A DNA stretch of 64,000 bases from an uncultured Acidobacteriota bacterium (GCA_963770895.1 CAVYRF010000001.1:1664001-1728000); one strand, 5' to 3'. Numbered from the stretch's first letter, positions 1-40,624 are shown. Numbers and translations are program-made. Notes: generated by a model from the letters alone, not told the origin.

Positions 1-1177
1 GGAGGCTGGAACGCGCCGACTCGACGACGTTCAGGGCGGCCTCGAGCACAGCGATCGCCTCGGTACGCGTGCCGCCGGCGCGCAGGGCCCGCGCCAACTC
101 CAGGCGCGCCATGACCCGGCCCTCCTGGCCTCCCAGGGCTTCAAATTCCTCCACGGACTGACGAAGAATCGGCACGGCCTTGGCGATTTGCCCCTGGCAG
201 CGCAGCACAGCCCCGAGGCCAAGGTGAAGGTACGCGGTATGGAAAGGCGACACACCTCCCTTGCGCTGCGATAGCGCCAGCGAGCGCTCCAGATCCTGCC
301 GCGCCTCGCGGAGGCGGTCGAGGCGGCGGTAAAGCTGAGCCCGTTGTTCCAACGCGATGCACAAGTCGTAATCGGCATTGGCCGCAGTGAGGACCGACAG
401 AGCATCATCGTAAGTTGTGAGGGCGGCGTCCGGCTGGCCGTCGAGGGCGAGCCCCCAGGCCAGGGAAGCCAGGCTCTGGCCAAGAGTGGTGGTGGCTCCG
501 GAGCTCCGGTGCAAGGTGACCGCTCGGCGCAGCTCTTCGGCACCCTCACGCAGGCGACCGAGTTGCAACAGCAGCACTCCCCGATTGTGGAGCGCGGCGG
601 CCTCTCCAGCGAGGTCGCCGAGGCCATGGCGAAGCGCGAAGCATCGGTCGTGAGCGTTGAGCGCCGCGGACGGCAGTCCGCGGGCGGCGAATCCGGCCCC
701 CAGGTTGTTCCACGCGGTCGCCGCCACGGAAGGAAGACCCGCGGACTCCGCCAGCTCAAGGACCTGCCACTCAACCTGCTCGAGGCCGGCGAAGTCCCCG
801 AGCTGGAAGAGGACTTCGCCCAGATCGTTCGAGGTCTCGGCGTGCTCCGGAATGCTGCCGTGTTCGGAGAAGGCCCCCCGCGCCTGCTCCAGGGCTCTTC
901 GGGCCTCCTCCAGACGGCCCTGCCGTCGCAGGTCGAGCCCCAGGCGGCGCCGTGCCCGAGCCTGTTGCAGAGCCGGCGTAGAGCGCGCGTCGCCGGCACG
1001 AGCGGGCCACGTCGTCGGGGCCTCCCGCATCGCCTGGGAGGCCTCGCCTCGATCGCTCGCGGTTACCGGCACGGTCTCAGCTGCCGCTGGTAGCCGAGGA
1101 GTGTGAGCTGGGGAACCGCATCCGACCACGGCGACGGCAAGCCAGCTCACGGACAGCGGACATCGCTTGAGAGTCAC
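1..1177 (-). CDS. TPR-repeat lipoprotein, runs off the window start (probably a TPR-CHAT protein)
   Basis: Not in the ORF track because its stop lies outside the window. Manual translation from GTG at 1177 (overlapping the upstream TGA) gives MTLKRCPLSVSWLAVAVVGC (lipobox-like), then TPR-type helices (AETSNDLGEVLFQLG, ATAWNNLGAGF, AAALHNRGVLLLQLG). The CHAT domain is inferred, not seen. Confidence 0.75.
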   Translation of the reverse strand, partial: MTLKRCPLSVSWLAVAVVGCGSPAHTPRLPAAAETVPVTASDRGEASQAMREAPTTWPARAGDARSTPALQQARARRRLGLDLRRQGRLEEARRALEQARGAFSEHGSIPEHAETSNDLGEVLFQLGDFAGLEQVEWQVLELAESAGLPSVAATAWNNLGAGFAARGLPSAALNAHDRCFALRHGLGDLAGEAAALHNRGVLLLQLGRLREGAEELRRAVTLHRSSGATTTLGQSLASLAWGLALDGQPDAALTTYDDALSVLTAANADYDLCIALEQRAQLYRRLDRLREARQDLERSLALSQRKGGVSPFHTAYLHLGLGAVLRCQGQIAKAVPILRQSVEEFEALGGQEGRVMARLELARALRAGGTRTEAIAVLEAALNVVESARSSL

Positions 1178-1965
1178 CGGTCGAGCTCCACCTCCAACCG
1201 GAAGCTTGCCACCGTCTTGCCGGCGCGGTCTCTGACAAGAAGCTGGTGAGGTCCCTCTGCCAGGTGATCCCGGGGTAGGAACAGCACGAAGACGCCTCCT
1301 TCGCCGGGCATGAGGCCCTGCGACCGGAAGACCTCCGTGTGGCCGCGCCGGATCTCCAGATCGTAGGGCCCGGAGTCCAGCGTGACACCCGGCGCCGCCA
1401 GGGTGAGGACAATTCCTCTGGTGGCGGCAGGAACGACCGTGCGCTCACCGCCGCGCATTACGTCCGTCGCGGTGTCCGAGAGAGCCAGCAGCTCGACGAT
1501 CGGCAGGTTGATTTCGACGGCTCCCCGGGGAGACCCTGGGACGGCGTGGGGGCGCATCTGTCCGACCGCAAGGGCCAGGGCCACTCCTGCAGCGAATGAG
1601 GCCGTGATGGGTAGCCAAGCCCGAGCAAAGGAGCGTCGCGGCTGCGGGGACGGCTCGGCCGCCACCTGGACTCCGGGCAGAATTCCTTCCGCCTGCAGCC
1701 GTGTCCGCATGGCCTGCCAGCGCCGGTCCAGGCCGGCATCGTTCTCGAATGGCGCCTGGCGATCCGCCGGGTCGGGGAAGCGCATCAAGTCGAAGAGCTC
1801 GCTCGCCACGCCGGGGTCCCACGCAGCACGTTCGAGCAGACGCTCGCGCTCGGCTGCGGACAGCTCGCCGGCGTGCAGAGCGATCATCTGGTCGGTTGAC
1901 GGCCGCTCGCCCAACGCTTGCCGGCGCTCGCCAATGATCTCCGCTAGGGTCGTTTTCCAGTCCAT
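1174..1965 (-). CDS. Anti-sigma-factor-like single-TM protein (degenerate zf-HC2 N-terminus)
   Basis: Starts MDWKTT with RBS AAGGAG. LHAGELSAAERERLLER resembles the ZAS region, followed by a TM (WLPITASFAAGVALALAVG) and an extracytoplasmic beta-rich domain. Lies directly downstream of an ECF sigma. Confidence 0.65.
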   Translation of the reverse strand: MDWKTTLAEIIGERRQALGERPSTDQMIALHAGELSAAERERLLERAAWDPGVASELFDLMRFPDPADRQAPFENDAGLDRRWQAMRTRLQAEGILPGVQVAAEPSPQPRRSFARAWLPITASFAAGVALALAVGQMRPHAVPGSPRGAVEINLPIVELLALSDTATDVMRGGERTVVPAATRGIVLTLAAPGVTLDSGPYDLEIRRGHTEVFRSQGLMPGEGGVFVLFLPRDHLAEGPHQLLVRDRAGKTVASFRLEVELDR

Positions 1966-24974: not shown

Positions 24975-25439
24975 TCAGCGGGCGAGGGCGATCTGGGGTT
25001 GCAGGTAGTTGGACATGAGGTCTTCGAGATCGCTGGCGGAGGCGCCGCCGGTGAGGCGCGAGACCATTTCGCCATGCTGGAAGACCAGGAGGGTGGGGAG
25101 GGCCTGGACGCCGTAGCGGCGGGCGGCGAAGGGGCTCCAGGTGAAGTTGACGCGCACGACGCGGGCGCGGTTGCCGAGCCTGGCTGCCAGCGCGGCGAGC
25201 GGGGTTTCCATCTCGCGGCAGGGGATGCACCACGAAGACCAGAACGCCACCAGCACCGGCACGTCGGCGTGCAGCACGGTGCGGCCGAAGCTCAGGTCGG
25301 AAGCGCTCAGCACCTTCGCCGCGACAGGGGCGGACAGCTTGGCCGTCGGGCTGGCCGCGTTGGCCGTGCCCACGGACGAGGTCGACAGGATCGCGCAGAG
25401 GCACACGGCCACGATCAAGCAGACGGCTGGGCGGCGCAT
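24975..25439 (-). CDS. Exported thioredoxin
   Basis: Signal peptide; PVLVAFWSSWCIPC; YGVQALPTLLVF. Confidence 0.85.
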   Translation of the reverse strand: MRRPAVCLIVAVCLCAILSTSSVGTANAASPTAKLSAPVAAKVLSASDLSFGRTVLHADVPVLVAFWSSWCIPCREMETPLAALAARLGNRARVVRVNFTWSPFAARRYGVQALPTLLVFQHGEMVSRLTGGASASDLEDLMSNYLQPQIALAR

Positions 25440-25441
25440 GG

Positions 25442-26467
25442 CTACTTTCCTCCCTTGGCAATCGGAGACGGTGTGGAGGCCGCCGCGGCGGCTGCGATCG
25501 AGTCGGCGGCGATACCGGTGAAGCTGTTGGCGTGGCCGGCACAGGAGCCGGTGGCGGCATATTGCGGCGCGTCGCCGGCGGCGCGGCGGATGGCGGCGGT
25601 CGTCTGGAAGGCGGCTTCGACGGAGGCCGAACCGCGGTTTGTGGACACCGCGACGCTGCTCGTGAAGCCTTCCGCCGCATCGCCTGGCGCAGGCTCCGAC
25701 CCGGAGGGGGTGCCGGCGGCATCGGCTGCAGGCGCCATGGCGGCGAGCCACAGCGGCCGCACGAACGGTTCGCAGCGCACCTCGTGGTGCTCGTCGGTGC
25801 TCGACACGGCGACGACGTTACGGCCCAGGGCGACAGCAGCCGTGACGAAGCCGCCCGAGTAGCAGGGATCGGCAATCAGGATGAGCTTGCCAAAAGGCAG
25901 CACGGCGATCCGCTGCAGCAGATCGTTCGCCGAGATCGAGCCGTGCCGCAGTCCCAGCACCGTGTGGCCAAAGGCGCGGTAGGCATGGCCCGTCAGATAG
26001 ACCAGCAGCAAGTCGCCGGGGCGCAGCCGCTCCCGCAGGCTCGACACCGCCTGCCGCAAGCCCTCGTCGCTGGCGTCGCGGCGCCAGATCGGGACGACAC
26101 CCGCCGCGGCGCCGTTGCCGTCCCTGTCTTCGCCGGCGGCATTTGTCACACCCGCCGCCGGCGCCAGCGCGAACGTATCGGCCGGTGCATAGCCCAGGCG
26201 GGGCAGTGCGGTGAGCGCCAGGGCGACGTTCATGTTGTGGGTGAAGGCGTCGTCGCCGTTGATGATCAGTGCAAACTGGCGGGCGACCGGCTGCCGGGCA
26301 GCCCTCCCATTGCCGTCGGTCGCCACGCCCGCAGCCGTCGGTCCGGACGACGCAGCCATGCCGGCAGCTGGCAATCCGAACGTCGCGGCCACCGCCAGCG
26401 CCACGCCAATCGCAAACTCCGGGAATCGCCCGGCGCGGCGACCGCGCTCGGCATTTCTGCGTTTCAT
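25442..26467 (-). CDS. Secreted caspase-fold (C13/C14-like) cysteine peptidase
   Basis: FALIING; LLVYLTGHA (His); LILIADPCYSGGF (Cys); signal peptide; GGAGG RBS. Confidence 0.75.
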   Translation of the reverse strand: MKRRNAERGRRAGRFPEFAIGVALAVAATFGLPAAGMAASSGPTAAGVATDGNGRAARQPVARQFALIINGDDAFTHNMNVALALTALPRLGYAPADTFALAPAAGVTNAAGEDRDGNGAAAGVVPIWRRDASDEGLRQAVSSLRERLRPGDLLLVYLTGHAYRAFGHTVLGLRHGSISANDLLQRIAVLPFGKLILIADPCYSGGFVTAAVALGRNVVAVSSTDEHHEVRCEPFVRPLWLAAMAPAADAAGTPSGSEPAPGDAAEGFTSSVAVSTNRGSASVEAAFQTTAAIRRAAGDAPQYAATGSCAGHANSFTGIAADSIAAAAAASTPSPIAKGGK

Positions 26468-26742: not shown

Positions 26743-29196
26743 CTACTTGAACGAGAAGGTCGGCGGCTTGGCCGCTGGGGTCGTCCAGTGGACCTTCAGG
26801 AATTCCCGCACCTCGGCGAGGGCCTCAAAACTTGCGGCTGGGCCCATGGCCGCGTCTTCGAGATCCGTCCAGACGGTGCGTAGCTGCTCGTGGCCGAGGC
26901 CCAACCGGTCAAGTCGGTCGACCGCACTACGGCAGAGGGCCACCGCCTTGTCTGTTGCGCCTCGGCGAATATGGACTTCAAAGAGGTATAGGAGATCGAG
27001 AAATGCCTCGCGGTAAGCTTCTTGATCGAATGCATGCGCGATCAGCGCTTCGAAGAGCTGCACCGCCTCCTTGGTGCGACCCAGGGCCTCCAGCAGTCTT
27101 GCAGCGAGGAAGTCACCGCGTCGCCTGGTGGTCGGCGGCGCATTGGAGCCACGCAGCGGCTCCGCCTGATCAAACACCTGCAACGCCTGGTCGATTTCGC
27201 CCAGGTCGATCAGGCAGTCGGTGCGGATGAACTCGGCCAGGCATCGCAAGGCGGTATCCGTGGACGGAATGATAGGTATTGCCTGCGCCACGACTGTCAA
27301 TGCCCGCCCTGGGTCAGTGTCCAGGAGTGTGTGCGCCATCTGCACCATGGTCCGGGCGACAAGCGGCCAAGCCTGGTTGCTTTCGTAAAGCTGAATGCAG
27401 TCTTCGAGCGCAGCCAAGGCCTCGACGCGGAGCCCTTGATCCGCCGAAAGAGATGCAGCGATCGATTGTGCCCTTGTTCTTAGTAGAGGCTCGCCAGTGC
27501 CCTGGTCCAAGTGCTTCCTGGCTTGTACAAGGGCGGCGGTTGCCTTGCTCCATTCGGATGCGACACGGCGGGCATTTGCAACCTCTGCCCACAGCCGCGC
27601 TTGCAGGTCATGCTTGAGCGAGGCGGGTGCATCCATAGCTGCAATCGCCTGCAAGGCCAAGCTTGCCGTGAATTCGGCGTCATCGCGGGAATCTGCCTGA
27701 CAAACGCCCGCGATGAGCAGGTCCACGAAGGCAGTGGTGTGATACTCGCGAGATTGAATAATTCGCGCACGCTGCTCGCCTCTCGTAGCATGTTGAAGGC
27801 GAGACCAAAGCGCCTTGGCGATAAGTGATTCGACAATCCCCCAAGCCTTGTCGATTTCGAGGCGGTTTACGTGAGAAGGAAGTCGCTCCAGATCTCTTAC
27901 CGGCTTCGGCGCGGAAGGTGAGGCGCGGTTGTCTTGCCCGCTGCAGTTCTCTCGGGCCTCCCTTACCGTCAGTTCGTCCAGGCACCTATTGTGCGCGGCA
28001 GCTACGATCTTTGCCAAGGTCAGTCGGAGCTGTTCGTGAACCGGGACCCCTCTGCGGTCAAGCTCGTCCAGGACGCGTTGTCCCAAACCCGCCGCATGGT
28101 CGATTGATCCGAGCCGCACGTGAAATCCAAAGATATAGAAAAGATCGAGCACCGCATCTTTGATCAGGCCGCGGTCAAGGGCGTCGCTTACTACCGCGTC
28201 AAATAGCACCTCTGCATGTTGAGTATAGCCGATACCTTCGAGAAGGCGCGCCGCAATAAAATTGGAACGCAAATCAGCATTCGGTCGAACGTGCGCTCGC
28301 TGCAGTCGCTCAGACTCGGCAAAGGTGCACAAGGCTTCCTGCAGGCGGCCAAGGACCATCAGGCAGTCGGTGCGGATTCGTTCGGCGTCGGAGCGGAGGC
28401 TGAACTCATCCGATGCGACATAGATTCTTGCTTGGTCCAAGAAGGCCAGTGCCTGCGCCGGCTCATAGTCTGTGACGCAGTTAGCCATTTTGATCAGCAC
28501 CTGGCCCACCAGTGGCCAGTCATTCCGATCGGTATGAATTTTTCGGCACTTGTCCAGCGAAACCATGGCTGGATCCCATCTGCCTTGGTCTCCCAGGAGC
28601 GAGGCCACTATGGAGTGATATCGAGACCTAAGATTTGGGTCGCCCGTACCCGTCGTGCTGAACCCATCGGCCCGAAGCAGCGCTGCTCCGGCGGCCTGCC
28701 ATTCGCCGCGAATTCGGCGCAAGTTTGCGGTTTCAATCCAGATCGCCGCCAGACGATCGTTCTTGAATCCTGCATTTCCTTCGTCCGCGTCCATCCCTTG
28801 CGTCGCGAGCAATGCCAGGTTGCCAACAGATTGGGCTTTTTCCCTTGGCTGAGGTACCCGCAGGACACCCAAAAGAGCGTCGAGAAAGGAAGGCGAATGG
28901 CAGGCGCGGGAAAGGATCACCCTCTCCTTTTGGGCGCCGCGCGTCAGGCGTAGCAACTCACCAAGCTTCGCTCTTGCCAGGAGACGCTCAACCGCGATGC
29001 CTTTTTCAAACGTGGCCAGGTCGATGAGAACCTTTAGAAGCGTCGCACTCTTTGCCGTAAACGGACGTTCCCCCTGGAGACCGAGGGCGAGAGCGCGGCA
29101 GGTGCGGCACACTGCAAGGTGAGCCGCGACCTGCTCGATTTCAGTCCAGCCCCCTTCGCTGGAGCGACATATTTCCTCTTTGGTCAAGTGGTTCAT
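26743..29196 (-). CDS. TPR-like protein with N-terminal HxxxCxxC zinc finger and two internally duplicated ~350-aa modules
   Basis: HLAVCRTCR; paired motifs WIETANLRRIRGEW/WAEVANARRVASEW and WPLVGQVL/WPLVARTM; codon usage visibly less GC-rich than flanking genes. Confidence 0.8.
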   Translation of the reverse strand: MNHLTKEEICRSSEGGWTEIEQVAAHLAVCRTCRALALGLQGERPFTAKSATLLKVLIDLATFEKGIAVERLLARAKLGELLRLTRGAQKERVILSRACHSPSFLDALLGVLRVPQPREKAQSVGNLALLATQGMDADEGNAGFKNDRLAAIWIETANLRRIRGEWQAAGAALLRADGFSTTGTGDPNLRSRYHSIVASLLGDQGRWDPAMVSLDKCRKIHTDRNDWPLVGQVLIKMANCVTDYEPAQALAFLDQARIYVASDEFSLRSDAERIRTDCLMVLGRLQEALCTFAESERLQRAHVRPNADLRSNFIAARLLEGIGYTQHAEVLFDAVVSDALDRGLIKDAVLDLFYIFGFHVRLGSIDHAAGLGQRVLDELDRRGVPVHEQLRLTLAKIVAAAHNRCLDELTVREARENCSGQDNRASPSAPKPVRDLERLPSHVNRLEIDKAWGIVESLIAKALWSRLQHATRGEQRARIIQSREYHTTAFVDLLIAGVCQADSRDDAEFTASLALQAIAAMDAPASLKHDLQARLWAEVANARRVASEWSKATAALVQARKHLDQGTGEPLLRTRAQSIAASLSADQGLRVEALAALEDCIQLYESNQAWPLVARTMVQMAHTLLDTDPGRALTVVAQAIPIIPSTDTALRCLAEFIRTDCLIDLGEIDQALQVFDQAEPLRGSNAPPTTRRRGDFLAARLLEALGRTKEAVQLFEALIAHAFDQEAYREAFLDLLYLFEVHIRRGATDKAVALCRSAVDRLDRLGLGHEQLRTVWTDLEDAAMGPAASFEALAEVREFLKVHWTTPAAKPPTFSFK

Positions 29197-29326
29197 TTAA
29201 GTGATTCCTGCCTGACGATGGCGACGCTGGAACTTTAGCCTATCGCGGAATACGGCCGCCAGTACACTGCGGAAAGACGAGGGGGGCGTTTCTTCCTGGA
29301 GCTCCCCCTCGCGGAGCATGCAAGCC

Positions 29327-29422
29327 TCAGCTGTTGGGGTCGTAGCCGGCTCCGTGGTCCGAAATCAGGGAACGAGGAGACGTGCCGAAGAAAGACAGGA
29401 TACGCAGAACCAGTCGAAGCAT
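29327..29422 (-). CDS. 31-aa peptide MLRLVLRILSFFGTSPRSLISDHGAGYDPNS
   Basis: GGAGGGAG RBS 5 nt before the ATG; co-oriented directly upstream of the TPR gene. Confidence 0.6.
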   Translation of the reverse strand: MLRLVLRILSFFGTSPRSLISDHGAGYDPNS

Positions 29423-29546
29423 GGTTGCTCCCTCCGGGACAGGTGACCGCACGAGCAAGGTGCCGGGCGGAATGGGTGTCCCTATGTCTGGAGTCTCCGC
29501 CTGTCGGGGCCGAAGGACAAGCACATGCTTCGAGACGGGAGCCTCG

Positions 29547-30269
29547 ATGGAGCAAAAAGTGCCGAGAGTGGAAGGATTCAGGGTACCGACTTTAGAGACG
29601 GAGCGCCTGCGGTTGCGGGACCTGCGGGGCAGCGACTTCGAAGACTACGCCCGCATGTATGCGGAACCTGAGGCGGTGCGTTTCCTGGCTACCGGGGAGA
29701 CGTGGGGCCGCGCCAGGGCGTGGCGGCATATGGCGATGGCGGTTGGGCACTGGCAGCTCAATGGAGCCGGGGTGTGGGTGGCGGAAGAGAAGGGGTCTGG
29801 CGCGTTCGTCGGCATGATCGGATTCTGGGAGCCGGAGACCTGGCCTGGCTTCGAGTTGACGTGGCATCTGGCGCCGAAGTTCTGGGGACGCGGGTACGCC
29901 TGCGAAGGGGCGCGGGCGGCCCTTGCGCATGCCTTCCTGGTCTGGCGGCGGGATCGGGTGATGAGCTTGGTGCACCCGCCGAACCTCCGCTCGGTCCGGG
30001 TGGCCGAGCGGATCGGCGAGCGGCTTGACGGCCTTGTCGATCACCTGGGGTCGCCGGTTCTCACCTTTGGGATCGACCGGGAAACCTATCTTCGAGAGGT
30101 TGCCCCGGCGGCGGTGACGGCCCCGCGGGCGGATGAGCGGGCGTATGAACAGGCGGGCGTCTGGCGACTGGATCCGAACCTGGCACTCCGCGGGGCGGTC
30201 GGCGCCCTGCCACCGCAGGACCGCGATGCTGGAGCGTCTTGGGCCCGCGCAAGCAGGAGCGCTGGATAA
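29547..30269 (+). CDS. RimJ/RimL-type GNAT N-acetyltransferase
   Basis: LETERLRLR; FWGRGYACEGA; NLRSVRVAERIG. Confidence 0.85.
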   Translation: MEQKVPRVEGFRVPTLETERLRLRDLRGSDFEDYARMYAEPEAVRFLATGETWGRARAWRHMAMAVGHWQLNGAGVWVAEEKGSGAFVGMIGFWEPETWPGFELTWHLAPKFWGRGYACEGARAALAHAFLVWRRDRVMSLVHPPNLRSVRVAERIGERLDGLVDHLGSPVLTFGIDRETYLREVAPAAVTAPRADERAYEQAGVWRLDPNLALRGAVGALPPQDRDAGASWARASRSAG

Positions 30270-30271
30270 CG

Positions 30272-31198
30272 ATGCCGACACGCGATGAGATGAAGCTGCT
30301 GCTCCGCATGCTGCGCACCATCCACGGTGGCAGCCAGCAGGAGCTGGGTACGGCAGCGTCGATCGATCGCACGACGATCAGCCGCTTCGAATCGGGCGAT
30401 ATGACTCCTTCGCGCGCCCATCTCACGCGGTTGGCGAAGGCGGCCGGCGTGTCGTTGCCGTTTGCCGAGTCGATCCTGCTGATGGTGGTTCGCCTGCTGC
30501 TGAACCCTGCGATGTCGGACCTGGGCCGCGCGCGGCCGGACGCAGAGGGCGACGCCTTGACGGCCATGGAGCGGGCGGTGGTGGAGACGCTGCGTTTGGG
30601 GGTCGCGGGGTTGCGCTCGGACCAGGTGACGCGCGACGCGGCGGATCGATCGGTGCTCCCGACCGCTGACGACAGGCTTGCCGTGCCAGCGCTTTGGGCG
30701 CGCTTCGCTGCGTGCGGGCTGGAAGAGCGGCGACGGCTGGTCGGGACGTGCACGGAGTTCCAGACCTGGGCGTTCAGCGAACGATTGTGCGAGCAGAGCG
30801 CCCAGGCGGCGGCGGAAGGCTCCGCGCAGGCGCTCGGTCTGGCGAGGCTTGCCCTGATGGCTGCCGAACGCGCGCCCGGCCCGGCCGACTGGAAATCGCA
30901 CTTACGGGGGCATGCCTGGGCGTTCGTGGGCAATGCGCTGCGGGCGGCGGGCGACCTGCCGGCTGCCGGTGCGGCCTTGTCCTTGGCGCGGACGCTGTGG
31001 CGGGAGGGCGCTTCCGGGTACGCCGGCCTGCTGGTGGGCTGGCACATGCCCGCTCTGCAGGCGTCCCTTGCCAGAGGTCAGGGCGAGCAGGGCCGCCCGG
31101 CCGGCGGCAGCGGTGCCTTGCTGGGGGGCGGCCGCGCGGCGATTGGCGCCGCGGCCGCCCCTGGGAGACGGGGCTTGGGGGATGTTGCGAAGGGCTAG
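30272..31198 (+). CDS. XRE-HTH + TPR-like regulator, probably 3'-truncated by the direct repeat
   Basis: SQQELGTAASIDRTTISRFESG; HAWAFVGNALRAAGDL; the last ~38 codons are read from the repeat copy. Confidence 0.7.
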   Translation: MPTRDEMKLLLRMLRTIHGGSQQELGTAASIDRTTISRFESGDMTPSRAHLTRLAKAAGVSLPFAESILLMVVRLLLNPAMSDLGRARPDAEGDALTAMERAVVETLRLGVAGLRSDQVTRDAADRSVLPTADDRLAVPALWARFAACGLEERRRLVGTCTEFQTWAFSERLCEQSAQAAAEGSAQALGLARLALMAAERAPGPADWKSHLRGHAWAFVGNALRAAGDLPAAGAALSLARTLWREGASGYAGLLVGWHMPALQASLARGQGEQGRPAGGSGALLGGGRAAIGAAAAPGRRGLGDVAKG

Positions 31199-31260
31199 TG
31201 CCCGCGCGGCAGGTCAGGGACAGGGGAAGGCGTTGGTGTCCTGGACCGCTTGGGCTGCTG
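31083..31260. repeat. Direct repeat copy 1 (178 bp)
   Basis: Near-identical to 32116-32294. Confidence 0.92.
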
Positions 31261-31394
31261 ATGAAGGCTATCCAGGCTCATGTCCTCCCTAGGGGACGAT
31301 TCTCGATTTGCGGCTAAGCCCCGGGGGCCAGCCTGGAAGAGGCGGGGGTGGCAAAACGCCTTGTAGGCACCTGCCGGTGTGCTTGCGGGAGTAC

Positions 31395-31684
31395 GATTGG
31401 CGCGATGAGCGAAGGGCTACCTCAACGGCGTTCAACCCGGCAAGGTATTGCTCGACAGCCCAGGTCTACTTATCCGGGCTTTGGCGCCGCAGCAGCTGCT
31501 GGCGATGAAGCTCTGCGCTTGGCGTGACGACGTGGATGTCGCGGATGCAGCGGTCCTTCTGCATGAGCTCCCTGGTGAGCGAGGAGAGGTTTGGAATCAG
31601 ATTCGGCCCTTCCTCGTCCCCGGCCGTGAGCTCAAGGCAGAGTATGCCTTTGACGATCTATGGGAGTCTGAGCGTGGATCTTAG
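31395..31684 (+). pseudogene. 3' remnant of a DUF6036-like nucleotidyltransferase (toxin)
   Basis: DW..(frameshift)..AKGYL...LLAMKLCAWRDDVDVADA; N-terminal catalytic part absent. Confidence 0.55.
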
Positions 31685-32027
31685 AGACCTGGTAAAGGCT
31701 CTCTTGCAGTTTGAGACGTTGACGGCACGGCAATGGCTCGCAGATGCAACGCGCTCAGGGTTCGTCTGGTCCGATGTTCCCTCCCCTGATGGCCTTGACG
31801 ATACAGAGCGAGCCGTCGCCGCCGGTGTCGCCGAGCTGTTAGCCGCCAGAGCAGGCCAGACGCCACCATCTTGGGCGGCGGCTATCCCGCCGGCACCGAA
31901 GACTCTGTTCCTCGTGCGCTCCGCCGCCACGATGCCGCGCCTTCGTGCCGCATGCGAGCAAGAAGGCCCGGAGCCCTTACGTCGCCGGGGGCTCTTGGCG
32001 CCACCGGGTTTTCTGACCATTGCTTAG
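31674..32027 (+). CDS. Putative antitoxin-like partner of the nucleotidyltransferase
   Basis: AVAAGVAELLAARAGQTPPSW...PEPLRRRGL; overlaps the remnant's stop. Confidence 0.55.
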   Translation: MDLRDLVKALLQFETLTARQWLADATRSGFVWSDVPSPDGLDDTERAVAAGVAELLAARAGQTPPSWAAAIPPAPKTLFLVRSAATMPRLRAACEQEGPEPLRRRGLLAPPGFLTIA

Positions 32028-32115
32028 ATTGCCATGTGACTCGTGGCGGTAGTCTCGACAGTTGAAGATGTTTTTCTCCTGAGTTGCTGCTCGAGGTAAT
32101 TGAACAAAGACGGTA

Positions 32116-32294
32116 GCGAGCAGGGCCGCTCGGCCGGCGGCAGCGGTGCCCGCAGCGGGGCGGCCGCGCGGCGATTGGCGCCGGGCGGCCGCCCCTGGGA
32201 GACGGGGCTTGGGGGATGTTGCGAAGGGCTAGTGCCTGCGCGGCAGGTCAGGGACAGGGGAAGGCGTTGGTGTCCTGGACCGCTTGGGCTGCTG
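32116..32294. repeat. Direct repeat copy 2 (includes the protease 3' end)
   Basis: Near-identical to 31083-31260. Confidence 0.92.
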
Positions 32295-34098
32295 TCAGGT
32301 CGGGGTTCAAGTAGGTCTTGACGTGGCCGGTGTTGGTGTCGGTGACGTTGATGGTGAGGCCGACGTTGGTGGTGGCGGAAAAGAAGACCCAGAAGGTGGA
32401 GCTCACCGGGCAGGCATTGATGATCTTGACCAGCAGCTCGGGGTTGGTGGCGCTGAAGAACCACAGGATGCCGCCTTGGTCGATGCCCAGGCTGGACAGG
32501 GGGATGGAGTTGCCGTTGCCGCTCAAGCCGCCGCCCTGCGAGGTCTTGAAGGAGGCGGTGACCTTGAAGCGGTGGTCGCCGGCGTTGTTGTCGATGCAGA
32601 GGGTGGTGGCGTTGGCGACGCAGGGGGTGGTCTGGCCCGCCGCGGGGCTGAGCCACGCCTGGAGGAAGGGATAGCTGACGTTGAACGCGCCGTCGAACTC
32701 CGAGTTGGCGTAGTCGCAGCCGTTGCTGGGGTCGTGGCCGGTGAAGGCGCAGCCGCCTCCCAGCTGGCCGACGACGTCGCCGTTGGCGAGCAGCAACGGC
32801 GAGCCGGAGCTGCCGCCGAACGTGGCGCCCTGGCTGAGGCTGCCGTAGATGAACTGCGGGCGCGGCGCGCCGTCGCTGCACACCGGGATGCTGCTGCCGG
32901 TCTGCAACGCAGAACGCGAGAACTGCTCGGTCAACGAAAAGCCGTCCGGCGCCGGAAAGGACAGGCGGTTGAGCTGGGTGCCCTGCGTGAGGTCGCTGGC
33001 GTTGGCGTCCCAGCCGAAGTACCAGCGCCCGGGGACCGCGCCGTTGAGCTGCACGAGGGTGAAGTCGGAGCTGTTGTCCGGTGCCTGCGCCGACTTGGTG
33101 GCGAGCAGGGTCGAGCCGCTGACGATGAGGGGCGTCGTCGGCGGGTTGCCGTTGCAGGTGTCGTCGTAGTAGTCGAAGGTCGCTTCCAGGCTGGAGGCGG
33201 CGTCCTGGTCGGCGAAGCAGTGGTTGGCGGTCAGCAGGTAGGGCGTGTCGTTGTTGGCGGTGTTGTTGAGCAGGCCGCCCGAGCACAGGTAGGCGGTGCC
33301 CTGGTCGACGAATTCCAGGGCGGCGACGCCGTGGCGAAAGTTGGCGACGCCGGGGAACTGGCTGTTGGTGATGCAGGTGGCGTCCACCAGGCAGCTGGTG
33401 TTGACGGCGGCGGGGGCGGTGCCGGTGGCGGTCGCGGGGTTGCCGTGGACCAGCTCCATCACCTCGCGCAGCGCGAAGTTGGCGGTGGTGGCGCCGGCCG
33501 GCACGTGCACTTCGAAGCTGACCGATTCACCGGGGACGGTGGGCGTCCACAGGTTGCCGGCGGGCGACAGCAGCTCGAGGCCGAAGGCGTGGCTGACGCC
33601 GTCGCTGCCGGACACCAGCATCTGGGTGCCGGCCGGCAGGTGGACGTTGGCCAGGTGCAGGCGCAGGCGGTAGGACTCCTGGACGCGGATGTGCACGCCC
33701 CAGGCGAGCTGGCCGCCGCCGGCATTGCCGACGATGCCGCCGGCGTACGGGCGCGGCGTGGCACCGGCGGCGACGGTGCCGGCGCGGGCCAGGTCGATGA
33801 CGCCGCCGTTGGGCAGGGCGCGCGGGAAGCCGATGCGATAGGGGAGCTTGCCGGCGGAGTTCCAGGTGGTCAGGGCTTCGATCTGGTCGACGGCGCCGAC
33901 GCTGGCCGGCACCAGGTCCTGGTGGATGGTCTGGGCGAGCGCGCCGGCCAAGGCGAGCGGCGTGGCGGCGGTGGCGCGGGGCGCGGCGTCCGGCGGCGAC
34001 ATATGACCGGCCAGTCGCTGCGCGAAGCCGGGGGTGATCGCAGCCGCGAGGCCCAACCACAGGATGGCGGCAGCGACGGTATGACGGCGGCAGTGCAT
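32248..34098 (-). CDS. Secreted lysyl-endopeptidase-like (trypsin-fold) serine protease with C-terminal AFPCP domain
   Basis: CSGGLLNN; LLTANHC; SDFTLVQL; GGSSGSPL; AAAGGAG RBS. Confidence 0.9.
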   Translation of the reverse strand: MHCRRHTVAAAILWLGLAAAITPGFAQRLAGHMSPPDAAPRATAATPLALAGALAQTIHQDLVPASVGAVDQIEALTTWNSAGKLPYRIGFPRALPNGGVIDLARAGTVAAGATPRPYAGGIVGNAGGGQLAWGVHIRVQESYRLRLHLANVHLPAGTQMLVSGSDGVSHAFGLELLSPAGNLWTPTVPGESVSFEVHVPAGATTANFALREVMELVHGNPATATGTAPAAVNTSCLVDATCITNSQFPGVANFRHGVAALEFVDQGTAYLCSGGLLNNTANNDTPYLLTANHCFADQDAASSLEATFDYYDDTCNGNPPTTPLIVSGSTLLATKSAQAPDNSSDFTLVQLNGAVPGRWYFGWDANASDLTQGTQLNRLSFPAPDGFSLTEQFSRSALQTGSSIPVCSDGAPRPQFIYGSLSQGATFGGSSGSPLLLANGDVVGQLGGGCAFTGHDPSNGCDYANSEFDGAFNVSYPFLQAWLSPAAGQTTPCVANATTLCIDNNAGDHRFKVTASFKTSQGGGLSGNGNSIPLSSLGIDQGGILWFFSATNPELLVKIINACPVSSTFWVFFSATTNVGLTINVTDTNTGHVKTYLNPDLTAAQAVQDTNAFPCP

Positions 34099-34281
34099 GC
34101 AAGCTCCTTTCATTCGCAGATCGGGATCGGGTGGACGACGCGAGGTGACCTGCGGGTGTTCACTCCCTCGGAAGCGTCTCTGGAATCAAGAGTCCATAGA
34201 CCGACCCAAAGTATACGGCTGTCGCGCCCAGGGCGTTGAGTCCGCGGCTCGTTCGCCGGCCCTGTGCTAGCCTGCGGCGTC

Positions 34282-39535: not shown

Positions 39536-40624
39536 CTACGGGCAGGGGAATGCCGCGACGTCGGTCACCGCCGGCGCCGGCGGTCCTGGATAGTTGAAGT
39601 AGCGCTTGGTTTCGCCGGACTGCACGTTGGTGACATCCAACTCATAGTAGAGGTTGGTGGTGGCGGCGCTGAACACCCACCACTGGTTGTCCACCGCGCA
39701 GCCGTTGAGGACCTTGACCAGGATCTCCCAGTCGTCCGCGTTAAAGAACCAGAATACGCCGGAGCCGGGGTTGCTGCTGGGAACGATGGTGGCGGCGCTC
39801 TGCGCGGTGCCCTGGGCGCCGACCCGGACCGAGGCGTTGACCGCGAACTTGCCGTTGAGGCAGAAGGTGCCGCCGCCCGAGCTGCCGCAGGTGGATTCGG
39901 CGGGCGGCCCCAGGATGGGCGGGATCTTGCCCTGGAAGGTGCCGTTGTGGCCGCCGACGGCGTCGGTGGCGACGAACATCGGCCAGACCGCCACCAGGCC
40001 GGCTTGCGCGGTGCGCACCGGCACGTTGATCGAAGCCTGGATCTCCGCCTGGGTGCGGGCTACGTTCCACAGCCGCACCTCGTTGATCGAGCCGTTGGGG
40101 CTGTAGGCCCAGCTGGCGTCGCCGCCGATCTCGACCGGCGCGCTGCTCAAGGAAAGCGGGCCGGTTTCGGAGAACGTGCCCACCAGCTCGCCGTTGATGT
40201 AGTGCTTGCGCGTCGAGCCGTCGGAGGTCACGGCGACGTGCGTCCACGCGCCGTCGGCCGGCAGCACGCCGGCGTCATGGTCGGAGCCGGCGCCGGTCGT
40301 ATACGAGCGCAGCAGGTTGCCGCAGACGCCCACCCAGTAAGCTTTCGTATAGTCCTTGCCGATGATGCTGCGGCAGCTCTCGGCGGCGAAGGGCAAGTTG
40401 ATCTGCACCCACGCCTCCAGCGTGATGCCGCTGGTCGGGTTGAGCGCCGCGTCGGCGGGAATCTCCAGGAAGCCGTTGTTGGCGTCGAGGGTGCCGTCGC
40501 CGATGAACTCGGTCCACAGGCCGAAGGGCTGGGCCGCCAGCGCGGCTGGAAAACACGACAGGACGACGAGCGCGGCGAGCCGCGGACGGCGCGTCGCTCG
40601 CCTGAAAAAGGCGCAGAGGTTCAT
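39536..40624 (-). CDS. Secreted LamG/concanavalin-like domain protein with C-terminal AFPCP domain
   Basis: ITLEAWV; WTHVAVT; YING; GSINEVRLWNVART. Confidence 0.85.
   Translation of the reverse strand: MNLCAFFRRATRRPRLAALVVLSCFPAALAAQPFGLWTEFIGDGTLDANNGFLEIPADAALNPTSGITLEAWVQINLPFAAESCRSIIGKDYTKAYWVGVCGNLLRSYTTGAGSDHDAGVLPADGAWTHVAVTSDGSTRKHYINGELVGTFSETGPLSLSSAPVEIGGDASWAYSPNGSINEVRLWNVARTQAEIQASINVPVRTAQAGLVAVWPMFVATDAVGGHNGTFQGKIPPILGPPAESTCGSSGGGTFCLNGKFAVNASVRVGAQGTAQSAATIVPSSNPGSGVFWFFNADDWEILVKVLNGCAVDNQWWVFSAATTNLYYELDVTNVQSGETKRYFNYPGPPAPAVTDVAAFPCP

Follow-up and report, generated by a model that had tools for sequence, protein, structure and literature searches.

We analysed a 64,000-nucleotide (nt) stretch of DNA from an uncultured Acidobacteriota bacterium (GCA_963770895.1, CAVYRF010000001.1:1664001-1728000), referred to here as the window. 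At 26743-31198 it carries a 31-codon open reading frame (ORF), here the mini-ORF, followed on the same strand by a gene for an 817-amino-acid protein with a zinc-finger-like N-terminus and two tetratricopeptide repeat (TPR) modules, here the sensor. An original prediction, made from the sequence alone, had read the two as a candidate peptide signal and its receptor. The ORF, its ribosome-binding site (RBS), its polar tail and the 130-nt gap between it and the start codon of the zinc-finger/double-TPR gene (ATG at 29196) all lie where that prediction had placed them. The features of the pair are listed below by position in the window.

29436..29546, no strand assigned: intergenic region between the mini-ORF and a divergent acetyltransferase gene, with blocks GCTTGTCC, GGCGGAGACTCC, GGGACACC and CACCTGTCCC
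29428..29435, minus strand: RBS GGAGGGAG, 5 nt from the mini-ORF ATG
29327..29422, minus strand: mini-ORF, putative propeptide gene, 31 amino acids (ATG at 29422, TGA at 29329-29327), product MLRLVLRILSFFGTSPRSLISDHGAGYDPNS
29277..29312, minus strand: G+C-rich hairpin, 15 nt past the mini-ORF stop, followed by CGTCTTTCC
29197..29270, minus strand: conserved block upstream of the sensor gene (..AGTGTAC..GTATTCCGCGATAGGCTAAAG..)
26743-29196, minus strand: sensor gene, 817 amino acids, zinc anti-sigma domain and two TPR modules

The mini-ORF and its flanking elements

ORFs alone mean little here because the window is about 70% G+C. Many spurious ORFs occur in high-GC genomes (96 ORFs are listed in 7.5 kb of the window), and on that ground the mini-ORF could be a chance ORF in G+C-rich intergenic DNA. 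The same genome (8.16 Mb in 3 contigs) encodes a sensor paralogue of 49% identity at C2:4635646-4638078, about 130 nt upstream of which we identified its own 31-codon ORF, MLRLLYLLMSVFGVSSTPPDPDYGGGYDPNG. This ORF has the tail GGGYDPNG and shares the RBS, the upstream DNA blocks and the downstream hairpin with the window mini-ORF. Across all six frames of the 8.16-Mb genome, 'DP[ND][GS]-stop' endings occur only four times, three of them directly upstream of zinc-finger/TPR genes; the third such ending belongs to a 110-amino-acid protein with a signal-like N-terminus and a C-terminal AWIDPNG.

The closest subfamily comprises 13 loci from 8 genomes (the window locus, L001, L005 and L032-L041), and a mini-ORF of 30-78 codons was found in every one of them. 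These ORFs start with M-L-R-(L/F/V), continue with about ten hydrophobic residues and end in D-x-G-x-G-x-D-P-(N/D)-(G/S/N). In the window product MLRLVLRILSFFGTSPRSLISDHGAGYDPNS, a short linker joins a hydrophobic N-terminus to the conserved core D-x-G-x-G-Y-D-P-N-S, and the tail pattern D-x-G-x-x-x-D-P-[ND]-[GS], which the original prediction had put forward, is present in the lineage, as the aligned mini-ORFs reveal. Residues M1, L2, R3, G24, D28 and P29 are invariant in the 12 orthologues and paralogues aligned. Seven copies of 31 codons differ at 230, 139 and 309 first, second and third codon positions, respectively; 5' of the mini-ORF ATG, the gaps in the alignment of the 13 loci are not multiples of three. 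The GAAGGGAG-type RBS block is kept in 13/13 aligned loci.

Given the paralogous pair, the presence at 13/13 loci, the codon pattern and the conserved RBS and hairpin, we conclude from comparative sequence that the mini-ORF is a real, conserved gene. A chance ORF is refuted by the conserved sequence, codon pattern, RBS, position and strand, and we assign it a negligible probability. Searches of Pfam and NCBIfam gave no family for the peptides. The best four public sequencing runs that contain the sequence are soil metagenome DNA from one study, with no RNA run listed.

The spacer between the mini-ORF and the divergent GNAT N-acetyltransferase gene (124 nt) contains four blocks conserved in the 13-locus alignment. 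It probably represents a promoter or operator together with a stem (GGGACA/TGTCCC) in the 5' untranslated region (UTR), the stem being taken from an RNAalifold consensus over the aligned loci. Past the mini-ORF stop, each of the 13 loci has a strong hairpin, the sequence of which varies between loci and which in L039-L041 is followed by a T-rich stretch; it is probably a terminator or attenuator between the peptide and sensor genes. The block CAATGTACAGAGGC-CGTATTTCGAGTTAC-CTAAAAC, which L001 lacks but most of the 13 aligned loci share, is probably the sensor's own promoter region. A scan of 29100-29650 for sigma-70 consensus promoters and simple terminators returned none.

A hairpin after the stop in every locus, directly before the sensor gene, would also suit a cis-acting leader peptide, the translation of which controls read-through of the hairpin into the sensor gene and the product of which has no function. 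Relatives of the family argue otherwise, as they reach 45-137 residues, with signal-like N-termini and repeated cassettes; the amino-acid core is kept while the nucleotide sequence varies; and at some loci a sigma factor gene stands between the peptide gene and the sensor. We consider a leader peptide very improbable.

Domains, fold and family of the sensor

The sensor gene is divided into the following parts.

29062..29196, minus strand: helices of a ZAS-type anti-sigma domain, residues 1-45, with H3, H26, C30 and C33
27937..29196, minus strand: sensor module 1, residues 1-420, comprising the anti-sigma domain, a long helix and ~7-8 TPR-like helix pairs
26743..27864, minus strand: sensor module 2, residues 445-817 and stop, a second TPR module with no zinc finger

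Residues H3, H26, C30 and C33 (H26-x3-C30-x2-C33) are invariant in 23/23 aligned N-termini and align with H6, H31, C35 and C38 of ChrR, which we take to be its zinc ligands. A profile of the N-terminal region matches ChrR (2q1z_B, E 1.8e-5, residues 4-84) and also DdvA (8.8e-4), 3hug_B (2.3e-3) and RsiW (0.01), and the NCBIfam model antisigmaE reached only E 0.075 against the sensor. Module 1 has the near-invariant residues D147, N158, R161 and G183, and module 2 repeats the motif W-x-E-x-A-N-x-R-R (N541, R544). Weak TPR matches in Pfam fall in two separate regions of the protein, and the two modules are homologous. No membrane segment was found in the sensor (maximum KD19 1.27).

An AlphaFold2 model of residues 1-439, built from a 122-row alignment, has short N-terminal helices, a long helix and seven to eight helix pairs (predicted local distance difference test, pLDDT, 92; predicted template modelling score, pTM, 0.87). 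In the full-length model (pLDDT 86.7, pTM 0.83), two modules flank a disordered linker (residues 421-444) with pLDDT below 50. We conclude that the sensor, as its sequence and predicted structure indicate, is a soluble cytoplasmic protein in which a ChrR-like anti-sigma domain is followed by TPR superhelices.

Foldseek returned modest matches (E 3.5e-5 to 1e-3) to Pins/LGN, phage Rap, MalT domain III, RapF-PhrF and NprR. In a Foldseek-independent pass over 48,161 representatives, RRNPPA receptors took six of the top 10 places and PlcR rank 18. The closest solved neighbours of the model include Rap, NprR and AimR, which are peptide receptors of Bacillota, and the solved TPR neighbours also include the partner-peptide binders Hop, Sti1 and LGN. 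In a comparison of profiles with solved chains, RapJ scored E 8.5e-8 over 180 residues and RapF 1e-4, with designed pentatricopeptide repeat and TPR proteins scoring higher; no Rap-, NprR- or PlcR-specific model of Pfam or NCBIfam matched the sensor. In the structural comparisons, RRNPP receptors outscore unrelated TPR proteins that bind peptides by a small margin only; the structural match of the model indicates the same kind of fold, and common descent with RRNPP receptors is not proven.

Both modules carry a near-invariant Asn-x-x-Arg in a TPR helix (N158/R161 and N541/R544). A published description of RapF has Asn and Arg anchoring the backbone and C-terminus of the peptide, and describes a strictly conserved TPR Asn of RRNPP receptors, N227 in RapF, that contacts the peptide backbone (PMC3601957). 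A complex model of the 817-amino-acid sensor with the 31-amino-acid peptide, made without controls, scored 0.00 against a mark of 0.32, which is evidence neither way.

The genome has about 40 matches to PF04542, of which three adjoin zinc-finger sensors.

C2:5718553-5719092: extracytoplasmic function (ECF) sigma gene beside a sensor, in the order peptide, sigma, sensor
C2:2999414-2999986: sigma gene beside a sensor, divergent from the peptide-sensor pair
C1:577947-578792: sigma gene beside a zinc-finger sensor

In other genomes an ECF sigma gene (r2 and r4_2 by Pfam) lies directly upstream of the sensor at L029 and divergent from it at L019. Separately, an ECF sigma gene (PF04542, E 4.6e-13) is found at 2325-2525 of the window on the minus strand, just upstream of a gene at 1-1444 (minus strand) for a protein of ~1050 amino acids with a distant match to the same TPR module (jackhmmer E 7e-31). 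Similar pairs of a sigma gene and a large TPR gene occur at C1:862495-867100 and C2:1187100-1191159.

A jackhmmer search with module 2 recovered ~60 members in this genome at E < 1e-28, comprising proteins with a zinc finger and proteins with an XRE helix-turn-helix (HTH) alike. The likeness between AWAFVGNALR and LWAEVANARR, from which the original prediction had linked the window's XRE-HTH protein with the sensor, proved in this search to be real homology, and its Asn is invariant or nearly so throughout the family. A quick tree of 46 modules placed all XRE rows in one clade of 24 with no zinc-finger row inside (Shimodaira-Hasegawa-like approximate likelihood ratio test, 99).

Searched against 1.84 billion representatives, the module profile matched 44,222, 11,096 and 3,811 clusters at E <= 1e-3, 1e-10 and 1e-30, respectively. 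Among the 145 best library representatives, 127 have the zinc motif within the first 90 residues and 13 are at least 780 amino acids long; the library names for the family are 'TPR repeat protein' or 'hypothetical protein' only. The nearest Atlas clusters are all from Acidobacteriota where the phylum is known. Of 201 genomes sampled evenly across the phylum, with 8 candidates scored per genome, only seven matched at E <= 1e-20 (the organism's own, three of the same order and three of the same class).

Pairing with peptide genes and the proposed signalling

Sensor homologues were found in 36 of the 41 related genomes, at 4-20 per genome, and are mostly single-module proteins of ~450 amino acids. 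A first strict scan gave 14 tail-motif ORFs at 13 of 31 loci, every one upstream and on the sensor strand. For the formal count we used 40 non-duplicate loci, having dropped the window locus (L002), duplicates (L003, L004, L007, L039-L041), short fragments (L006, L012, L014, L023) and distant class-level loci (L042-L046). A locus was positive if a stop-terminated ORF of at least 25 amino acids, with DP[ND]G in its last 30 residues, lay at most 1300 nt upstream of the sensor gene. Such an ORF was present on the same strand at 30 of the 40 loci; the loci are related, so that the counts are not independent, but they come from several families within one order. On the opposite strand of these regions the count was 0/40, and random 1300-nt windows of this genome were positive in 11 of 3000 cases. 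One of the 30 positives, L021, is doubtful.

Within this genome, a motif ORF stands at 9 of the 17 zinc-finger sensors. Among five distant loci of the same class (L042-L046) no DPNG-type ORF was found upstream, and a pattern-based search of genome contigs gave one locus only. The original prediction had named a lack of enrichment of such mini-ORFs beside TPR paralogues as grounds for rejecting it; the enrichment is in fact very strong. The peptide gene and the sensor gene are linked, because of the contrast between 30/40, 0/40 and 11/3000, the 9/17 sensors within the genome and the three of four genomic endings beside sensors. The two-gene cassette has expanded in a single Acidobacteriota order, probably Thermoanaerobaculia. 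A comparison of peptide cores with sensors over nine double-module sequences found four columns that split off the N-DPNG group; these fit clade membership and are uninformative about covariation.

Precursors at loci elsewhere are longer (45-137 amino acids) and have a signal-like N-terminus, an amphipathic Trp helix and a Pro/Ala/Gly/Ser linker, ending in one to five (hydrophobic)-DP(N/D)G units, some with extra residues or flanking cysteines. By a crude rule (basic n-region, then a hydrophobic run with no charged residue over at least 11 positions), 23 of the 33 listed motif ORFs look signal-like at the N-terminus, and an RBS-like site precedes 28 of the 33. The conserved C-terminal core and the signal-like N-termini suggest that the peptides are propeptides. 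Several precursors carry 2-5 tandem cassettes, such as (RGAALDPNG)x3 or SQWDPNG repeats; tandem duplication within Phr propeptides has been described as giving several pheromones (PMC11343458). At L056 (G025:C6) and L011 (G022:C265) the units are perfect or near-perfect tandem copies, (RGAALDPNG)x3 and (APDPQAGDKAGSQWDPNG)x2-3, suggestive of recent cassette amplification.

The residue before DP and the last residue vary among the paralogues of one genome, G005 (N-DPNG, L-DPNG, Y-DPDG, Y-DPNN). This genome encodes at least four double-module sensors (L005, L035, L036, L037), each with its own 31-amino-acid peptide, and the cores differ (AGNDPNG, GGLDPNG, SGYDPDG, AGYDPNN), a pattern that would be expected were paralogous pairs kept from cross-talk.

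Seven of the nine XRE-type clusters of the window genome contain a precursor gene with two to four C-x(2-3)-DP[NDS]G-x(1-4)-C units, and the flanking cysteines suggest disulfide-cyclised loops. Cysteine-flanked precursors lie at C2:494921-495448, C2:1901451-1901996, C2:3839044-3839592, C2:4269678-4270250, C2:2881179-2881553 and C1:2039148-2039669. Their units follow a signal-like N-terminus and a tryptophan-rich helix and have the same core as the window peptide.

Signal-like N-termini and repeats would also be expected if the small proteins were themselves secreted cargo (antimicrobial, metal or calcium binding, or matrix), with the sensor tuning their expression to some other signal. Read as a motif, the core D-x-G-x-G-x-D-P-N-G is rich in Gly and Asp like metal-binding turns, and a promoter region and a hairpin of its own accompany the peptide gene. 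Around the cassettes, however, genes for modification, immunity or export are not conserved, the only recurrent neighbour being the GNAT gene at 8/11 loci of one subfamily, and a one-to-one pairing of peptide and sensor at ~30 loci, with two effector domains, is the pattern of a ligand and its receptor. We therefore regard cargo as unlikely.

Alternatively, the TPR sensor may clamp the C-terminal tail of the unexported precursor and be freed upon its export, in which case it would report export capacity or the state of the envelope with no re-import. The linkage, fold and C-terminal motif count equally for such a clamp and for a signalling peptide, the sensor is cytoplasmic, passage back across two membranes is not needed, and many of the solved TPR neighbours (Hop, Sti1, LGN) bind C-terminal or extended partner peptides. 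The precursors themselves fit a clamp less well: tandem cassettes suggest the release of several short products, which a one-to-one clamp does not need, internal cassettes have no free C-terminus before processing, and the cysteine-flanked loops of the XRE-linked precursors suggest extracytoplasmic disulfides. A clamp is in our view rather improbable.

The best fit is a propeptide-receptor pair, because it accounts for the linkage, the C-terminal core, the signal-like N-termini, the tandem cassettes, the diversification of the core and a TPR domain of the Rap/NprR kind. We propose, at a probability of roughly one half, that a soluble anti-sigma factor is gated by a ligand derived from an exported propeptide, by a logic like that of RRNPP systems. 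The mini-ORF would be the propeptide gene of a two-gene cassette, peptide then sensor. After export, its product would be trimmed to a short form whose end lies at the DPNG turn or close to it, and would re-enter the cell; two OppA-type binding proteins encoded in the genome make uptake at least feasible. The cytoplasmic sensor, whose gene starts 130 nt downstream, would receive the trimmed peptide in the groove of its TPR superhelix, and binding would alter the hold of the ChrR-like anti-sigma domain on an ECF sigma factor, changing transcription. As candidate targets we name the divergent GNAT operon and, besides it, the peptide gene. The window sensor is a tandem fusion of two sensor modules, and in the sister proteins the same module sits behind an XRE HTH and is paired with multi-copy, cysteine-flanked DPNG precursors.

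Several observations weigh against this proposal. In a diderm cell the peptide must cross two membranes in both directions. Ten of the 40 sensor loci have no motif ORF under the strict rule, the near-variants DPNS and DPNN accounting for two of them. No sigma gene stands beside the window sensor, the nearest PF04542 match being 27 kb away, and 14 of the 17 zinc-finger sensors of the genome have no sigma gene within 3 kb. Pfam zf-HC2 fell below E 0.05 in 0/17 sensors scanned and was not below E 0.01 in the window protein. When the window sequence alone is folded, the hairpin (z -1.0) and the 5' UTR (z -0.95) are no better than shuffles. The window peptide, known here from DNA sequence alone, has an arginine (Arg7) that breaks its hydrophobic stretch, at a position uncharged in 11 of the 12 other aligned orthologues, and its tail ends in S (DPNS) and not G; because of these two features, this copy may be poorly exported or diverging.

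The original prediction had likened the locus to the RRNPP layout of an HTH-TPR receptor beside a short propeptide gene. As outlined in one survey, the RRNPP signature consists of adjacent genes for a propeptide of 10-100 amino acids and a receptor (PMC10075063), and the effector of the receptors is described as an HTH DNA-binding domain or the 3-helix bundle of Rap (PMC3601957). The likeness holds for the small propeptide gene beside a cytoplasmic TPR receptor; it fails for the effector, as the adjoining receptor has a ChrR-like anti-sigma domain and is not an HTH-TPR protein. By sequence and model, the generic layout is matched in the small propeptide gene and the adjacent, predicted cytoplasmic TPR receptor. 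RRNPP propeptides have a secretion signal at the N-terminus and the mature peptide at the C-terminal end, to which the signal-like N-terminus and the C-terminal core seen here may correspond. Membership in the RRNPP family is not established, as the effector domain and the phylum differ.

Rap-Phr systems of Bacillus, its phages and plasmids have a 3-helix-bundle effector and a downstream peptide gene, whereas the pair described here is from a diderm member of the Acidobacteriota, with a zinc anti-sigma domain, an upstream peptide gene and, in the window, a double-module receptor. Phr peptides have no counterpart of the D-P-N/D-G core. The peptides of NprR-NprX, PlcR-PapR, AimR-AimP and Rgg-SHP are linear and unmodified, in contrast to the cysteine-flanked XRE-linked precursors of this family, and here again the phylum differs and the window XRE copy is truncated. 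With ChrR-sigmaE of Rhodobacter the sensor shares an N-terminal anti-sigma domain with H...H-x3-C-x2-C in a soluble two-domain protein with a C-terminal sensor, and some family members are, as in ChrR-type systems, encoded next to an ECF sigma gene. ChrR has a cupin domain and responds to a singlet oxygen or redox signal, whereas here the sensor domain is a TPR superhelix and the proposed signal a gene-encoded peptide; most copies, including that of the window, lack an adjacent sigma gene. MalT domain III (PF17874, TPR_MalT) and LGN/Pins and APPBP2, which are peptide-binding TPR superhelices of eukaryotes, belong to systems without peptide genes, and the sensor has no STAND ATPase.

Two reports describe RRNPP systems in Bacillota and the mobile elements of that phylum (PMC9765709; PMC12700828), and the genomes surveyed with RRNPP_detector were limited to 7,974 from Firmicutes and 47,982 from viruses (PMC10075063). 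In the treatment of TPRs by a review of ECF regulation, these repeats appear only as C-terminal extensions of ECF42 sigma factors (PMC8103513). A literature search, with few subscription journals covered, gave nothing on the Acidobacteriota cassette. The locus would bring RRNPP-like genomic logic, coupled to an anti-sigma output, to a soil phylum that is abundant, hard to culture and without described peptide signalling. Anti-sigma coupling, if true, would add a new mode of ECF sigma factor control, and the short, conserved core peptides are easily synthesised, which makes the hypothesis directly testable.

More tentatively, and at somewhat less than even odds, we speculate that the whole order uses gene-encoded (hydrophobic)-D-P-N/D-G peptides as a multi-channel language, which Rap/NprR-like TPR sensors with anti-sigma or XRE output would read within the cell. 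If so, peptide quorum sensing with a cytoplasmic receptor would for the first time be known outside Bacillota, in a diderm at that, and for the first time a ribosomal peptide would directly gate an anti-sigma factor. The thousands of metagenome sensor clusters would then represent a major unrecognised regulatory system of soil bacteria.

Neighbouring genes and the truncated XRE copy

Two genes on the plus strand complete the locus.

29547..30269, plus strand: GNAT N-acetyltransferase (Acetyltransf_3, PF13302, E 5.1e-30), divergent from the mini-ORF
30239..31198, plus strand: XRE-HTH protein with the first half of a sensor module (HTH_3, 1.2e-9), probable start ATG at 30272

A divergent GNAT gene is present at 8 of 11 loci and was not found at L033 (where the contig ends ~980 nt upstream of the sensor), L034 and L040. 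At the window locus, L035, L036 and L038 the GNAT gene is followed by a second sensor gene. NCBIfam gave the enzyme a weak likeness to BlmB/TlmB, far below the cut-off. The GNAT is a candidate regulated target or a candidate peptide-modifying enzyme.

The XRE-HTH gene is co-oriented with the GNAT gene, and its product shares the sensor module (jackhmmer E 3.3e-40). The original prediction had placed an XRE-TPR protein of similar type about 1 kb from the mini-ORF. The same module is indeed there, with 816 nt between the two gene starts; as for the protein, the sequence indicates that the window copy is a truncated remnant without the C-terminal half of the sensor, because its similarity to full-length paralogues (56% and 51% identity) ends at 31081, around residue 285 of ~500. 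No peptide gene of its own kind was found beside the copy. A 210-nt direct repeat (31083-31295 and 32116-32294, 96-100% identity) begins where the homology ends. It has only two copies in the genome, and these enclose 820 nt (31296-32115) in which small ORFs at 31448-31684 and 31524-32027 have no Pfam or NCBIfam match. Because the first repeat copy starts at the point where homology is lost, we conclude from the sequence that an insertion, or else a duplication-deletion event, cut the gene.

Downstream of the sensor gene, on the minus strand, 25442-26467 encodes a 341-amino-acid protein with a signal-like N-terminus, a weak caspase-type match (NCBIfam caspase_w_EACC1, E 8e-5) and, by eye, H...G and D-P-C-Y-S-G motifs. 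It is followed by a gene for a thioredoxin-domain protein (24975-25751, minus strand; TIGR01068, E 7e-19). Neither the caspase-like peptidase gene nor the thioredoxin gene is conserved at the other 10 loci, for which reason we rejected both as components of the system. On the other side of the locus, 32248-34113 (minus strand) encodes a 621-amino-acid trypsin-like peptidase with a signal-like N-terminus (Trypsin_2, E 2.4e-7). A related ORF lies at ~39536-40000 in the window, and another relative is found beside the orthologous locus L035.

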